From a virus: 64,000 bases of DNA. The DNA lies in the IMG/VR virus record IMGVR_UViG_3300042547_000432; one strand, 5' to 3'. The notes beneath the pieces were generated by a model that saw nothing but the letters and a program-made list of their open reading frames with translations, had not been told where the DNA came from and did no database searches. Every line of letters begins with the position of its first letter. Position 1 is the first letter of the stretch. This document shows, one piece after another, positions 47,000-51,954 of the stretch. The position numbers and the translations under genes are program-made.

Positions 47000-47344
47000 T
47001 TAATTCGAAAATACGTTACTTGTGACGGAGACAATTTTAATATTGTTCGCAATATTTAGTTGATCTCCGATATGTGCGATAGGTTGCTTCATGTGAAACA
47101 CTGTGCCATCGGCTTTTACTACTCTTTCGACGGAGCATGTAGATGAAGGATTCGTACATGTGTTGCCTTGAGAAGGACTCAAAGATTCTCCATTTACCAT
47201 TACAGGAATTTTGTTGACATAAACTTTGTTACTACTTCCAGTTCCAGATAGTTCTCTCGGTGGAACTTGACAAGGGGTTGGGCATGTGCTTCCACTGTCA
47301 GATCCCCTATACGTTGCTACTGGTCTTCCTTTTCCTGCTGCCAT
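47000..47344 (-). CDS. PAAR-like spike tip protein (gp5.4-like)
   Basis: Cys pairs, GSSNKVYVNKIPV, PIAHIGD and a terminal SNVFSN; length about 114 aa. Confidence 0.7.
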   Translation of the reverse strand: MAAGKGRPVATYRGSDSGSTCPTPCQVPPRELSGTGSSNKVYVNKIPVMVNGESLSPSQGNTCTNPSSTCSVERVVKADGTVFHMKQPIAHIGDQLNIANNIKIVSVTSNVFSN

Positions 47345-48935: not shown

Positions 48936-48951
48936 GTGGTAGGATGGCGGG

Positions 48952-49161
48952 TCAGGTGGCAGCGGCGAGCGCCTTGCGAACGACTGCCGACATGCCAGGT
49001 GAGATGGTGCTGCGTCCCTTGCTGCCATGGGTCGGGACGATCAGATCAGACTGCCAGGCGGGATGCCTCCAGACTTGATGCGACGCTGTGGTTCGCTTGA
49101 GCACAGCGCCAACCTGTCTCAGCTGGCGCTCGGCGTCTCGGCACTTGAGAGGGGATGCCAT
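48952..49161 (-). CDS. hicA: HicA/YcfA-like mRNA interferase toxin
   Basis: 69 aa with R.L.Q.GAVL.R..ASHQVWRHP....LIVP.H.....ISPG...V.K, the HicA pattern including the catalytic (G/A)SH. Confidence 0.7.
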   Translation of the reverse strand: MASPLKCRDAERQLRQVGAVLKRTTASHQVWRHPAWQSDLIVPTHGSKGRSTISPGMSAVVRKALAAAT

Positions 49162-49164
49162 GGG

Positions 49165-49359
49165 TCAGTCCTCGTGGGTGAACAGGGGCAGGCGGGCGAG
49201 CGCCTCATCACGGTAGCGGTCGGCGTGGGCACCTGCCAACCACGATGCCTCTACGGTGATGGGGACCAGGCGCCCCATGGTCTGCTGTGCGTCATCAGTC
49301 GGGCGACCTGCCCACACGATCTGGCGGGTCTGGAGGTCGGATGCCATGGAGAGGATCAT
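49165..49359 (-). CDS. Hypothetical early protein
   Basis: ORF directly behind a TAGACT promoter (49386-49391). Confidence 0.5.
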   Translation of the reverse strand: MILSMASDLQTRQIVWAGRPTDDAQQTMGRLVPITVEASWLAGAHADRYRDEALARLPLFTHED

Positions 49360-49404
49360 CGGTGTCTGTCGGTTGAACTGAGAGAAGTCTACAGGCGGCG
49401 CCGC

Positions 49405-49590
49405 TCAGTGGCGGTCGCTGATGTTCCAGATGCCCCACTGTCCACCGTTGGCGTGGGCGTCCCGAACTTCGATCGCTTCCATACGCTGGGCGCTGGTGTA
49501 GGTCGCCCAACCCTCAGCGGTCTCGCTGGCGAGGGTGCTGCCGTAGCAGGCGTTCCAGATCAGGTTGGCGGTTTCGAGGGTCATGGTCAT
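49405..49590 (-). CDS. Hypothetical early protein
   Basis: ORF behind repeat promoter copy 1; starts MTMTL. Confidence 0.55.
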   Translation of the reverse strand: MTMTLETANLIWNACYGSTLASETAEGWATYTSAQRMEAIEVRDAHANGGQWGIWNISDRH

Positions 49591-49669
49591 GGGTCGTTTC
49601 GTTTCGATGCTGTTAGTCTACAGGGTCGGGCGGCAGGATCGGGGGCATCAGTGGACACCCCCTCAACCG

Positions 49670-49939
49670 TCACAGCTCTGCCATCATGGCGTTCATCTCG
49701 TCGGCATCAATGGCGACGCTATCCCATGCCACCCCGTCACGGGTCTGCCCGAGGTGGCGACCGATCATGCCATCCATCATGCAGCGAACGAACTTCTCCC
49801 AGGGGGTCTCATCATCGCCACAGTACTCTACACATGCCTTGGCGGTGTTGTAGAGGAATTCATCGTTGCCGATCCACAGGGCGGCATTCCAGGTCTCGTA
49901 GGTTGCCCAACCGTTGTAGGTGCTGAGGGTCATGGTCAT
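49670..49939 (-). CDS. Conserved phage hypothetical protein (YNGWATYETWNAALWIGNDE family)
   Basis: The YNGW.NYETW...LW..NDE motif is common in phage early regions. Confidence 0.65.
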   Translation of the reverse strand: MTMTLSTYNGWATYETWNAALWIGNDEFLYNTAKACVEYCGDDETPWEKFVRCMMDGMIGRHLGQTRDGVAWDSVAIDADEMNAMMAEL

Positions 49940-49983
49940 GGTCTCGTTTCGTTTGGTTGATGCTGTTAGTCTACAGGGTCGGG

Positions 49984-50124
49984 TCAGCGGATCTCTGCCA
50001 GGATGGACACCTTCTCAGCTGTCACACGGTCAAGGGTCTGGGCGAGGGCGAACACGCTGCCGAGGGTCTGAGCGAACATCAGGCAGATGCCAGCGATCAG
50101 GGAGAGGCGGATCAGGTTTGCCAT
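49984..50124 (-). CDS. Small hydrophobic protein (46 aa, not in the ORF track)
   Basis: MANLIRLSLIAGICLMFAQTLGSVFALAQTLDRVTAEKVSILAEIR, behind repeat copy 3. Confidence 0.45.
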   Translation of the reverse strand: MANLIRLSLIAGICLMFAQTLGSVFALAQTLDRVTAEKVSILAEIR

Positions 50125-50171
50125 GGTTGTCTGTGGTTGATGCTGTTAGTCTACAGGGTCAGCGCCGCCGA

Positions 50172-50372
50172 TCAGGCGAGGCAGTGACGGTTCACCCACT
50201 GTCCCAGGGAGAGGGGGCGGATCACCAAGGCGCTCACCATGGCACGACGGGAGACACCTTCGAAGCGGTAAACCTTCCTGCTGCTGGTGAACTGTACCCG
50301 AGCGGTGCCCGTGATAGGATTGACGGTCAGGCGATGGATGGCGCTGCTGTTCTGGCGGATTCGGAAGATCAT
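50172..50372 (-). CDS. KTSC-like small protein
   Basis: SSAI..L.......A.VQF......Y.FEGV......SLGQWVN resembles the KTSC pattern. Confidence 0.5.
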   Translation of the reverse strand: MIFRIRQNSSAIHRLTVNPITGTARVQFTSSRKVYRFEGVSRRAMVSALVIRPLSLGQWVNRHCLA

Positions 50373-50555
50373 CGTTTGTCTGTGGTTGATGCTGTTAGTC
50401 TACAGGGTCAGGGGGCGGCGTCTCGCTGCCTTGTGCCAGTTGATCAGGCGTCCCAGCCGTGAGTTTAATCAGGGCGACAATCGCCGCCACTCCTGCGGGT
50501 CCAAACCACATGCAGAGGATGATACCCAGCAGGAGATAACGCTTGCGAATGTTAA

Positions 50556-50987
50556 TCAATAGTCGCTGAAGATGTGGCAGGAACGATAGGACGTGCCATC
50601 ATCACAAGAGGTGAAATCGTAGCGCAGGTTGCGATCGTAAGTTGCCTCCCAATCAATCACCAAACCATCGGGAACATTCATGGTTTCGTTATAGTAATCC
50701 TCAGCGAAGTCTGCCTCAGAATCGTAACACCCACGGTAGCGATCATCGCAACCTTCGATGTTATCAATTCCATCCTCACTGGCGAGTGCATCTACTGCCT
50801 CGTATCCGATCGCTTCACCACAGCGAACATACTCCTCGTAGATGTTAACGAAGGCACGCTCATTGTACTCATCAATGAACTCCAGAATGTCATCCAGAGC
50901 GTAGTTATCTTCGAGCAATTCTTCGATCTTCTCGACAGTTTCAGTGCTGAGAACTTCTTTGTAGTTAGCGGTCAAAGTGATGGACAT
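50556..50987 (-). CDS. ArdA-like antirestriction / DNA-mimic protein (C-terminal part)
   Basis: Very acidic. YRGCYDSEADFAEDYYNETMNVPDGLVIDWEATYDRNLRYDF matches the ArdA Y.G.Y.S..DFA.E....P..L..IDWE..RDL motif. Likely start MSITL at 50987. Confidence 0.65.
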   Translation of the reverse strand: MSITLTANYKEVLSTETVEKIEELLEDNYALDDILEFIDEYNERAFVNIYEEYVRCGEAIGYEAVDALASEDGIDNIEGCDDRYRGCYDSEADFAEDYYNETMNVPDGLVIDWEATYDRNLRYDFTSCDDGTSYRSCHIFSDY

Positions 50988-51158
50988 TTGTGAAGTGAAA
51001 TGGTTTGGGGTGGGGCACCGATCTCCCCTACGGTGGTGAAGGATCTTACCCATGACCTGTCCCGATGTCGGGTGGTTTCGCTGGGAGGGTTCGCTTCTGA
51101 AGGTAGTATGGAGCAGATCGGGGGGAAAGTCAAGCGGTCTGTGCCACTTGTTGAACTG

Positions 51159-51320
51159 TCACATCCCGTTCAGGAAATCGGCAAGCGCCTCCCTATACTC
51201 TGCCTCAGTCTCAAAGGTGCGACCGTGGATAGTACGGGGGTACTCTGCCTTAGGAGCAGGTGCCTTGCTGGGCTCCTTGCCCTGGGCGATGATCTGAGCG
51301 ATGTAGGGGTTGTTTGTCAT
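51159..51320 (-). CDS. Small cyanophage early protein (53 aa, not in the ORF track)
   Basis: MTNNPYIAQIIAQGKEPSKAPAPKAEYPRTIHGRTFETEAEYREALADFLNGM, behind repeat copy 5. Confidence 0.55.
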   Translation of the reverse strand: MTNNPYIAQIIAQGKEPSKAPAPKAEYPRTIHGRTFETEAEYREALADFLNGM

Positions 51321-51373
51321 GCTGTTAGTCTACAGGGTCAGGTGGGGGATCCGATCCCCCTTGTGCCAGTGTG

Positions 51374-51565
51374 TCAGGCGTCCATCCCCATCGCTGCCTT
51401 CAGGTCGTTGTATGCCTTCAGGTAGTAGTCTGCATCGCTGCCCTTACCTGCCACGCGGCAGTCACAGGCAAGGCACAGGAGAGCGGTACGGATCGTGCTC
51501 CACTGTGCCTCGGTGAGGGTCACCGTGGCGAGGTCAAGGGGAAGGACGTTGGTTCGGACGGTCAT
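51374..51565 (-). CDS. Hypothetical early protein (63 aa)
   Basis: Start MTVRTNV at 51565, behind the promoter at 51591. Confidence 0.5.
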   Translation of the reverse strand: MTVRTNVLPLDLATVTLTEAQWSTIRTALLCLACDCRVAGKGSDADYYLKAYNDLKAAMGMDA

Positions 51566-51645
51566 CGGGTCGTTTGATTGAACTGGAATCAGTATAGAGG
51601 TTGACGGGGTGGGGTGGGAGTGGTAGTGTACCACTCCCTGAACTG

Positions 51646-51780
51646 TCACTCCTCGGGTCCGAAGCAGCACTCAAGGCAGAACGCCTCCAGCTCTGCATCA
51701 TCATCCATGGGCCAGGGTTGATCGAAGATCTCACCCTCGCAGTCCTGAATCTCATCCCAAAGGCAGGTGTCGAAGTCCAT
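51646..51780 (-). CDS. Very acidic Cys-containing peptide (44 aa)
   Basis: MDFDTCLWDEIQDCEGEIFDQPWPMDDDAELEAFCLECCFGPEE, behind the promoter at 51806. Confidence 0.45.
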   Translation of the reverse strand: MDFDTCLWDEIQDCEGEIFDQPWPMDDDAELEAFCLECCFGPEE

Positions 51781-51954
51781 CGGGTCGTTTGCTGTTGACT
51801 CCCTTAGTATAGGGTCAGCAGCGCCCCCTACAACCCCCCCGTGTGCCACCTCTCAAACTGGCCGCGGCGACCTAGACAGATGCCCTCTAGGCGACTAACC
51901 TAGAGGGCGGGAGGGGAGGGAAGCAAGGGGGCAGCGAAGCGGCCGCTCAGTTTG

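Follow-up and report, generated by a model that had tools for sequence, protein, structure and literature searches.

The upstream half of a two-part promoter of T4-like cyanophages appears to copy CGRE1, an element of the host's Yfr2 promoters, and would recruit the host regulator PlmA in place of a -35 element, the promoters being most probably of the early type. On the basis of sequence comparison we consider this reading somewhat better than an even bet. It concerns nine promoter units in a stretch of 64,000 nucleotides (the window) from the IMG/VR virus record IMGVR_UViG_3300042547_000432. The promoter type of these units is of a known kind and not new; the boxes show that a freshwater member shares the upstream element of its marine relatives, and the comparison with the host names a concrete candidate for the protein that reads it, namely the single GntR regulator of the hosts, PlmA.

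Nine promoter units in a GC-rich island

The source phage is a freshwater T4-like cyanophage with its box units packed in a GC-rich island. The 103-kb contig represents about 55% of the phage genome and contains no psbA, hli or similar host-like gene. The island is present in 24 sequencing runs, all of which are DNA metagenomes of lake water. The Pfam scan of the island proteins recovered DUF7249 (125.8 bits), HicA_toxin (27.9 bits, cut-off 27) and ArdA (23.8 bits, below cut-off). A preliminary description of the window had listed nine boxes and nine -10 hexamers on the minus strand, all of which were found at the positions given, together with the spacings between them, of which eight were correct and one (32 nt, for the box at 51649) was a one-base miscount (31 nt). 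The distance from the box end to the -10 is, for boxes 1 to 9, 31, 31, 30, 30, 30, 30, 29, 30 and 31 nt, and the 5' arm starts 52-53 nt ahead of the -10 in all nine. The features are the following:

GC-rich island, 48950..51950, minus strand: 54-62% G+C per kb versus 31-48% in the window; the nine cassettes plus about 11 small genes in a single orientation (minus)
Box 1, CGGCCAGTTTGAGAGGTGGCAC, 51843..51864, minus strand: intergenic; weakest copy (7.4 bits leave-one-out); the host-derived matrix places its left arm within the top 0.03%
Promoter 1, -10 TATACT, 51806..51811, minus strand: 31 nt past box 1; drives the 44-aa ORF 51780..51646
Box 2, GTGACAGTTCAGGGAGTGGTAC, 51628..51649, minus strand: the upstream ORF ends in the TGA of the box; second-best match to the host arm matrix contig-wide
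Promoter 2, -10 TATACT, 51591..51596, minus strand: 31 nt past box 2; drives the 63-aa ORF 51565..51374
Box 3, TGGACGCCTGACACACTGGCAC, 51363..51384, minus strand: shares 11 nt with the 3' end of the upstream ORF; host-like in the right arm only
Promoter 3, -10 TAGACT, 51327..51332, minus strand: 30 nt past box 3; drives the 53-aa ORF 51320..51159
Box 4, GTGACAGTTCAACAAGTGGCAC, 51141..51162, minus strand: best copy, with 7/9 dyad matches; the upstream ORF ends in the TGA of the box; top contig match to the host arm matrix
Promoter 4, -35 TTGACT, 17 nt, -10 CATACT, 51105..51133, minus strand: the sole promoter with a -35; -10 located 30 nt past box 4; ArdA-like gene 50987..50556 downstream
Box 5, GGGACGCCTGATCAACTGGCAC, 50433..50454, minus strand: within ORF 50559..50395, a doubtful one with a TTG start; the right arm, GTGCCAGTTG, matches the host type perfectly (14.5 bits)
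Promoter 5, -10 TAGACT, 50397..50402, minus strand: 30 nt past box 5; drives the 66-aa KTSC-like ORF 50372..50172
Box 6, GGGACAGTGGGTGAACCGTCAC, 50184..50205, minus strand: within the KTSC-like ORF, encoding GQWVNRH; the coding box is also kept in related contigs
Promoter 6, -10 TAGACT, 50148..50153, minus strand: 30 nt past box 6; drives the 46-aa ORF 50124..49984
Box 7, GTGACAGCTGAGAAGGTGTCCAT (23 nt), 50003..50025, minus strand: within the 46-aa ORF
Promoter 7, -10 TAGACT, 49968..49973, minus strand: 29 nt past box 7; drives the DUF7249 gene 49939..49670
Box 8, GTGACGGTTGAGGGGGTGTCCAC (23 nt), 49651..49673, minus strand: the DUF7249 gene ends in the TGA of the box
Promoter 8, -10 TAGACT, 49615..49620, minus strand: 30 nt past box 8; drives the 61-aa ORF 49590..49405
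Box 9, TGGACAGTGGGGCATCTGGAAC, 49423..49444, minus strand: within the 61-aa ORF, encoding GQWGIWN; near-identical copies in S-H9-1 and one lake contig
Promoter 9, -10 TAGACT, 49386..49391, minus strand: 31 nt past box 9; drives the 64-aa ORF 49359..49165 and the HicA-like gene 49161..48952

Architecture of the box

Each unit consists of the box, a free, GC-rich spacer of 29-31 bp and a -10 of the type TAnnnT (TAGACT six times, TATACT twice, CATACT once), usually with TG directly before it, which might let these promoters fire without an activator. The box is an imperfect dyad of 22-23 bp with a consensus of about GTGACAGTTGA-N4/5-CTGGCAC; as a motif it can be written GTGACAGTT-N-TGGCAC, at about -64 to -43 with respect to the inferred start. 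Scored with a matrix made from the other eight, the individual boxes ranked 2nd to 40th among the 206,374 positions of the 103-kb contig, the positions that outranked a given box being mostly other boxes, and no site outside the island was found to score as high as the boxes in a scan of that contig. The left arms are poor in boxes 3 and 5, and box 1 is weak overall.

The dyad noted earlier is weak but real: 4.2 of 9 arm positions match, versus 2.3 for random 22-mers from the island (P about 1e-4). Such a two-armed element is what is expected for a dimeric DNA-binding protein. Most promoters had been said to lack a canonical -35, and this holds for eight of the nine, which match it at 2-3 of 6 positions; the exception is found at 51110 (TTGACT, 17 nt). 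The box can thus indeed be described as a positioned cis-element of promoters without a -35.

Partial inverted repeats at or over the 3' ends of upstream ORFs, which is where the boxes lie, could also form a stem-loop in RNA or single-stranded DNA, and might then act as a terminator or stabiliser for the upstream gene, like the stem-loop half of the PeSLs discussed below. We hold this to be very improbable: specific bases are conserved rather than pairing, most copies have an A-G mismatch at position 4, and compensatory changes were not seen among them. The RNA hairpin or terminator was rejected because fold energies (box plus 4 nt flank) were no better than those of shuffles (mean z = -0.23), a T-run after the box is missing and a terminator scan of the minus strand came out empty.

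The promoters recognized by sigma-54 have the consensus TGGCAC-N5-TTGCW, the -24 element of which equals the right arm of the box. The probability that the arm functions as such an element is nevertheless negligible, and we regard the reading as refuted by the sequence and by the hosts: TTGC is found 5 nt past TGGCAC in no copy, the arm lies about 43 nt ahead of the proposed start, and Sigma54_DBD was recovered in 0 of 5 host genomes while being present in the control genomes.

Four boxes lie wholly inside ORFs, in agreement with the earlier count of at least three, one of these ORFs being the doubtful one with a TTG start; four overlap a stop codon, which in three cases is the TGA of GTGAC, and one is intergenic. 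Two boxes encode GQW, as had been stated. Coding constraint fails to explain the boxes because they occupy three different reading frames, and this, together with the intergenic box, rules it out as the cause of the motif. With four boxes in coding sequence, the tightly packed array of cassettes offers a neat case of DNA that encodes protein and doubles as a regulatory site.

The same units in other cyanophages

A matrix trained solely on the nine window sites was used to search other genomes, as the preliminary description had suggested, with a unit being defined as the box, 29-31 nt and TAnnnT. The numbers of units, as compared to shuffled controls, were 2 vs 0.17 in Syn9, 6 vs 0.37 in S-H9-1 and 8 vs 0.27 in S-RIM32. 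The box promoters of Syn9 (about five units, at 47205, 48559, 49079, 52997 and 148743) are located ahead of small ORFs and a helicase gene. A pattern scan of IMG/VR yielded at least 119 loci, about half of which look like chance matches and which were used only if there was a further matrix match and a -10; among the matches listed, 17 of 119 loci had two or more units. Matching cassettes are also present in related lake-phage contigs. The suggested scan recovered units in related phages; the full phage-type dyad was not enriched in five host genomes. The box had been put forward as part of a phage-specific, uncharacterised early/middle switch, and this did not hold up: the combination of box and -10 is also found in Syn9, S-H9-1, S-RIM32, many viral contigs and the host Yfr2 promoters.

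A box without a dedicated protein was considered as well, either as a homology patch for the recombination that shuffles small genes, similar to the PeSLs known from other T4-type phages (PMC2839356, PMC4122927), or as a contact for RNA polymerase similar to an UP element. Nearly all small genes of the island are flanked by units, both CTGACCCTG, next to the -10, and the leader AACAGCATCAACC recur among units almost without change, and identical units join differing genes in related contigs. In contigs L275-L288, S-H9-1 and S-RIM32 the box unit precedes leaders and genes that differ. We nevertheless judge it quite unlikely. Across 29 cassettes the box columns contain 0.55 bit versus 0.26 bit for the spacer, and because the box is conserved while the adjoining 20 nt are free, recombination homology alone is disfavoured. 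In addition, distant phages and the host sRNA promoters, the flanks of which are unrelated, hold to a fixed spacing of 29-31 nt between box and -10, and the box is G+C-rich where UP elements are A/T-rich. Shuffling and the binding of a factor are, moreover, mutually compatible.

Similarity to the host Yfr2 promoters

The promoters of 42 picocyanobacterial Yfr2 (Rfam Cyano-1, RF01701), from host genomes that were reached via the psbA of Syn9, were compared with the phage units. In 26 of them a block of 22 nt, nTG(A/C)CAGTTGannnAGCGnCCn, is conserved while its flanks are not, and it starts 57-63 nt before the start of the RNA model. Its left arm, GTG/GGACAGTTG, is the left arm of the phage box (also written (G/T)G(A/C)CAGTTG), and its distance to the -10 is 29-31 nt in all 13 promoters with a recognisable TAnnnT, which puts the phage boxes in the same register. 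With a 10-nt arm matrix made from host promoters only, each of the nine boxes had one or both arms within about the best-scoring 0.1% of the contig, and the two best contig matches to a 12-nt host arm matrix were boxes 4 and 2. The right arms differ (AGTGGCAC in the phage versus AGCGCCAC in the right half of the host block). The full two-armed box with TGGCAC is enriched in phages; in the five host genomes the full phage-type dyad showed no enrichment, with fewer matches than the reversed control, and the phages therefore retain the more symmetric version of the site. Another palindrome of the host, CAACTGGCAC-A-GTGCCAGTTG, is built from the same 10-nt arms with their order exchanged.

CGRE1 has been described, for Prochlorococcus and marine Synechococcus, as a palindromic motif of 21-22 nt that begins 55-57 nt ahead of the point where yfr2 transcription starts; the GntR-type regulator PMM1637 (PlmA) was recovered on the motif in a pull-down and, unlike its R50A mutant, gives a shift with it in EMSA, and PMM1637 confers a higher output of the yfr2 and yfr4 promoters in a GFP reporter (Lambrecht et al. 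2018, PMC6191309). Within hosts it has been reported at yfr2 genes only (PMC6778093). The host block, which is an alignment made here and not the published logo, fits CGRE1 in its position and length and in being exclusive to yfr2 promoters. The remark that CGRE1 is 'flanked by GTTG' (PMC6191309) suits the second host palindrome at least as well as the host block. The phage boxes are like CGRE1 in that a two-armed element of 21-22 nt precedes a -10-only promoter, with a shared left arm and gap of 29-31 nt; with 22-23 nt and the arm matches given above they have the length and imperfect palindromy of CGRE1, and they match in sequence on the host-derived arm matrices, with a different right half. 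They differ in that, as an inverted repeat, the right arm of the phage box follows the left arm more closely than the host half does, and in that they serve protein-coding genes, often from within the preceding gene, while the host element is found at yfr2 only. A link between CGRE1 and phages was not found in the literature searched.

The proposed factor that reads the box

PlmA, a GntR protein, communicates with PII-PipX and drives the Yfr2 sRNAs in high light and in late nitrogen stress. In the five host genomes, which include marine and freshwater ones, a single GntR gene per genome passed the Pfam cut-off, in an open frame of 339-343 aa. A Pfam search of the 103-kb phage contig found no GntR gene; a candidate with 14.9 bits (G000:23799-23879) was spurious, being located within a DUF5661/DUF6321 protein. 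The factor is more likely host-encoded than phage-encoded, because other phages share the architecture with the host Yfr2 promoters, which are bound there by PMM1637/PlmA.

A rival is a dimeric activator of the phage itself, made early or carried in the virion, that would bind the box; the boxes would then mark a switch from early to middle expression, an idea of the preliminary description. The remark made there that T4-like cyanophages lack MotA and AsiA was confirmed in the literature (PMC5780444), and both the enrichment of the full TGGCAC form in phages and not in the five host genomes, and the fact that about 45% of the phage genome is missing from the contig, leave room for such a protein. 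We consider it unlikely, since the contig lacks a GntR-type gene, no Pfam DNA-binding domain was found among the 11 island proteins scanned, and the left arm is present in the same register at the host Yfr2 promoters, where a host protein binds (PMC6191309). Moreover, the genes served, such as the one for the ArdA-like anti-restriction protein, are of the kind needed before any phage protein exists.

With the host's PlmA as the factor, a PlmA dimer would sit on the phage box, centred near -54, and would aid the sigma-70 RNA polymerase of the host in starting at a -10-only promoter, with a predicted transcription start about 7 nt past the -10 and presumably early firing. Upon entry of the phage DNA, small genes, among which those for the ArdA-like anti-restriction protein, DUF7249 and HicA, would then be switched on by host parts alone. 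That the nine promoters form one regulon, as was proposed before, is plausible. The wider claim, that T4-like cyanophages start their first genes by copying the PlmA binding site of the host and in this way wire early transcription to its light and nitrogen state, is possible but falls somewhat short of probable. The timing of the first genes in these phages, without MotA and AsiA, is only partly understood. If the claim is true, the success of infection would be tied to the nutrient and light-stress regulator of the host, with ecological consequences; the whole phage family, in marine and fresh water, would in general depend on this one host protein, which might also be a locus of resistance, and there would be a handle for phage-responsive promoters in picocyanobacteria.

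Relation to other known systems

The late promoters of phages P2 and P4 that depend on Ogr/Delta have a partial dyad, TGT-N12-ACA, near -55 and a poor -35; Ogr/Delta is a small phage-encoded zinc-finger activator that contacts RNA polymerase and acts late. The phage box is like these promoters in layout alone, the sequences being unrelated.

The promoter-early stem-loops (PeSLs) of the T4-type phages RB49/phi1, T4/PST and KVP40/nt-1 combine a stem-loop resembling a terminator with a complete sigma-70 promoter (-35 and -10) downstream of it, and have been described in papers whose coverage does not extend to cyanophages (PMC2839356, PMC4122927). The window units resemble them as repeated regulatory cassettes between small genes of a variable region, with one cassette preceding different genes in related phages, and they have the location of PeSLs, with nine units between about 11 small genes and the same unit before different genes. 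They differ in that the boxes lack a stable stem-loop, as seen from the fold energies and the missing T-run, and in that a near-consensus -35/-10 pair at 17 nt is found in only one of the nine promoters.

Doron et al. 2016 (ISME J 10:1437) reportedly described a non-canonical 'novel regulatory element' upstream of early genes that is abundant and conserved in T4-like cyanophages; early transcription starts were reportedly mapped in Syn9 and P-TIM40, with the motif located ahead of them. The element in the window is presumably the same. Syn9, the phage studied there, carries about five units of box and -10, whereas the window phage is a freshwater phage in which the units are packed in a GC-rich island.

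The GC-rich island and its genes

The window is part of a 103 kb contig of a T4-like cyanomyovirus (~55% of the phage genome by the estimate given in the record), whose nearest named relatives are the Kyanoviridae S-RIM32, S-H9-1, S-WAM2, S-PRM1 and S-PM2. Very large ORFs (2,100-2,980 aa) predominate in the contig, and its 103 kb yielded no psbA, psbD or hli-type motif. At ~48950-51950 the G+C content is 54-62% per kb, versus 31-48% in the remaining window. This island, in which all genes are small and on the minus strand, was present in 24 runs, all lake-water DNA metagenomes; no RNA run was found among the runs with the island. The genes referred to below are:

48952-49161, minus strand: HicA-type toxin gene, with which the island ends (HicA_toxin of Pfam, 27.9 bits against a cut-off of 27)
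49165-49359, minus strand: 64-aa ORF directly upstream of the HicA-type gene, no Pfam match
49670-49939, minus strand: DUF7249 gene (125.8 bits)
50556-50987, minus strand: ArdA-like (anti-restriction) gene, 143 aa, acidic (ArdA, 23.8 bits, below cut-off)

The 11 island proteins scanned included weak ArdA-like, weak KTSC-like and strong DUF7249 matches and the HicA toxin, and none of the 11 contained a DNA-binding domain. The HicA-type gene shares promoter 9 with the 64-aa ORF and, as that ORF lacks a Pfam match, a HicB-type partner is not evident. The ArdA-like gene has a G+C content of 47%, below the rest of the island, and one record lists the S-PM2 homologue of its product as an anti-restriction protein. 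Among the island genes, the DUF7249 gene alone has clear homologues at the DNA level in marine cyanophages (S-RIM32, S-WAM2, S-H9-1 and S-PRM1; 81-86% identity).

The nine boxes and their promoters

The preliminary description had reported nine imperfect dyads, and indeed a 22-23 nt box precedes each of nine -10 hexamers on the minus strand (TAGACT six times, TATACT twice, CATACT once), as quoted there; we number the boxes and their promoters 1 to 9, from 51864 down to 49423. The spacings it listed hold for eight promoters, the single value of 32 being one base too long: the actual gaps are 31, 31, 30, 30, 30, 30, 29, 30 and 31 nt. In a leave-one-out procedure, a two-part weight matrix was made from eight boxes and the ninth was scored against 206,374 contig positions. 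Every box ranked between 2nd and 40th, the positions outranking it were mostly other boxes or their reverse strands, and no equally good score was found elsewhere in the contig outside the island. The dyad is real but imperfect, with arms matching at 4.2 of 9 positions versus 2.3 for random island 22-mers (P ~1e-4).

Four boxes lie wholly within upstream ORFs (at least three had been claimed), one of these being a doubtful TTG-start ORF; another four overlap a stop codon, three of them via the TGA in GTGAC, and one is intergenic. Two boxes encode GQW, as had been noted. Since the boxes occur in three reading frames, protein coding cannot explain the shared sequence. A canonical -35 is missing from most of the promoters, again as described: the only one (TTGACT, 17 nt) precedes the ArdA-like gene, which also has the best box (box 4) and the sole promoter recovered by a standard sigma-70 scan, and the other eight share 2-3 of 6 positions with TTGACA. 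Very probably, the nine boxes serve promoters without a -35 as their upstream activator site, and the mechanism put forward earlier, in which a dimeric factor on the box would replace the -35, is a reasonable one. The TG before the -10 may allow some activator-independent activity.

An RNA or DNA hairpin (a promoter-early stem-loop, PeSL) was rejected, as fold energies equalled those of shuffles (mean z = -0.23), most boxes have an arm mismatch at position 4 and no T-run follows the box. A sigma-54 promoter was ruled out by the sequence and by the lack of sigma-54 in all five host genomes.

The spacer that separates box 3 from its -10 contains a perfect palindrome of 17 bp, GGGGGATC-G-GATCCCCC (51344-51360, minus strand), with no counterpart in the spacers of the other promoters.

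The same promoter unit in other phages

With a matrix trained on the nine window sites only, the unit of box, 29-31 nt and TAnnnT was recovered 2, 6 and 8 times in Syn9, S-H9-1 and S-RIM32, versus 0.17, 0.37 and 0.27 times in block-shuffled copies, respectively. About five box and -10 units could be located in Syn9 (NC_008296; 47205, 48559, 49079, 52997 and 148743, plus strand), the first three preceding small ORFs (gp68, gp73) and the helicase gene gp75, and two sharing the proximal sequence CGTGTATTCTATA. A degenerate pattern scan of IMG/VR yielded at least 119 loci, with many chance matches among the matches listed; 17 of the 119 loci listed each contained at least two complete units, often in nearly identical copies (e.g. 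TGGACAGTYGGACAAAGTGGCAC + 30 nt + GTGTATTGTA).

Within the window, near-exact repeats of the -10-proximal CTGACCCTG-TAGACT and of the leader AACAGCATCAACC(A/G)... precede six genes (49386-51340, minus strand). A scan for the island -10 and leader retrieved 14 stretches (L275-L288) from lake and other viral contigs, in which the same cassettes precede other genes, and this recurrence suggests cassette exchange among lake cyanophages. Over 29 cassettes there is hardly any variation in the -10 and its CTGACCCTG flank, and the box columns carry 0.55 bit versus 0.26 bit for the 20-nt spacer, about twofold. Given the occurrence of the unit in independent phages and an informative box beside a freer spacer, the box is an element under selection and with a set position, belonging to a type of promoter that cyanobacterial T4-like phages have in common, and is not private to this phage. 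Doron et al. are reported to have described in 2016 a new element of early genes that is conserved across T4-like cyanophages.

Resemblance to host Yfr2 promoters

Host genomes were reached through Syn9 psbA, and five picocyanobacteria (Synechococcus WH7803, MIT S9451, MIT S1220, freshwater UW140 and Cyanobium N.Huapi) plus 40 further genomes from their family were searched for Rfam Cyano-1 (RF01701), which we take to be the Yfr2 family; the second search gave a match in 39 of 41 family genomes. A conserved 22-nt block, nTG(A/C)CAGTTGannnAGCGnCCn, starts 57-63 nt before the RNA in 26 of the 42 upstream regions read, and its flanks are without information content on both sides. TAnnnT follows the block after 29-31 nt, the phage spacing, in all 13 block promoters with a recognisable hexamer. 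The host copy L272 (AGGACAGTTCAAGGAGCGCCAC) and box 2 (GTGACAGTTCAGGGAGTGGTAC) are identical at 16 of 22 positions. With arm matrices built solely from host promoters, every window box has at least one arm that ranks within about the top 0.1% for the phage contig (10-nt version), and boxes 4 and 2 give the two best matches anywhere in it (12-nt version).

Judged by these likenesses, the promoter type shared by T4-like cyanophages mimics host Yfr2 promoters, and in view of this resemblance and its recurrence the earlier proposal of an unknown phage-specific switch is not supported. Cassette shuffling may go on alongside factor binding, but a role of the box in recombination only would leave unexplained both why the box is kept next to a free spacer and why the spacing is equal in host sRNA promoters.

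PlmA as candidate reader

CGRE1, the site of the host GntR regulator PMM1637/PlmA, occurs in the MED4 genome nowhere besides the yfr2 promoters (PMC6778093). It is described as a palindrome of 21-22 nt whose start lies 55-57 nt before the yfr2 transcription start; PMM1637 was recovered on it in a pull-down and shifts it in EMSA, which the R50A mutant does not (Lambrecht et al. 2018, PMC6191309). In E. coli, the wild-type protein increases the activity of the yfr2 and yfr4 promoters as measured with a GFP reporter (PMC6191309). The position and length of the host block in our own alignment, and its exclusivity, fit CGRE1. A single GntR-domain gene exceeds the Pfam cut-off in each of the five host genomes (open frame 339-343 aa). 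On balance we lean towards host PlmA as the best candidate reader of the phage boxes; no paper linking CGRE1 or PlmA to phages was found in the literature searched. It is possible that a phage-encoded protein binds the box instead: phages, but not host genomes, are enriched for the complete two-armed form with TGGCAC, and nearly half of the phage genome is missing from the contig, which itself has no GntR gene (one weak match sits in a DUF5661/DUF6321 protein).

Some host Yfr2 promoters contain a near-perfect 21-nt palindrome, CAACTG(G/T)CAC-N-GTG(C/A)CAGTTG (CAACTGGCAC-A-GTGCCAGTTG), the arms of which are the 10-nt arms of the phage box in opposite order. The host loci with this palindrome are:

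L233, L237, L239 and L240: upstream of Yfr2/Cyano-1
L238, L246, L254 and L267: further host palindrome loci

In some copies it spans the -35 region, downstream of a box-like block, and in others its right arm is in the box register. The description of CGRE1 as 'flanked by GTTG' (PMC6191309) agrees with this second palindrome, which may represent either another site for PlmA or the published CGRE1 itself.
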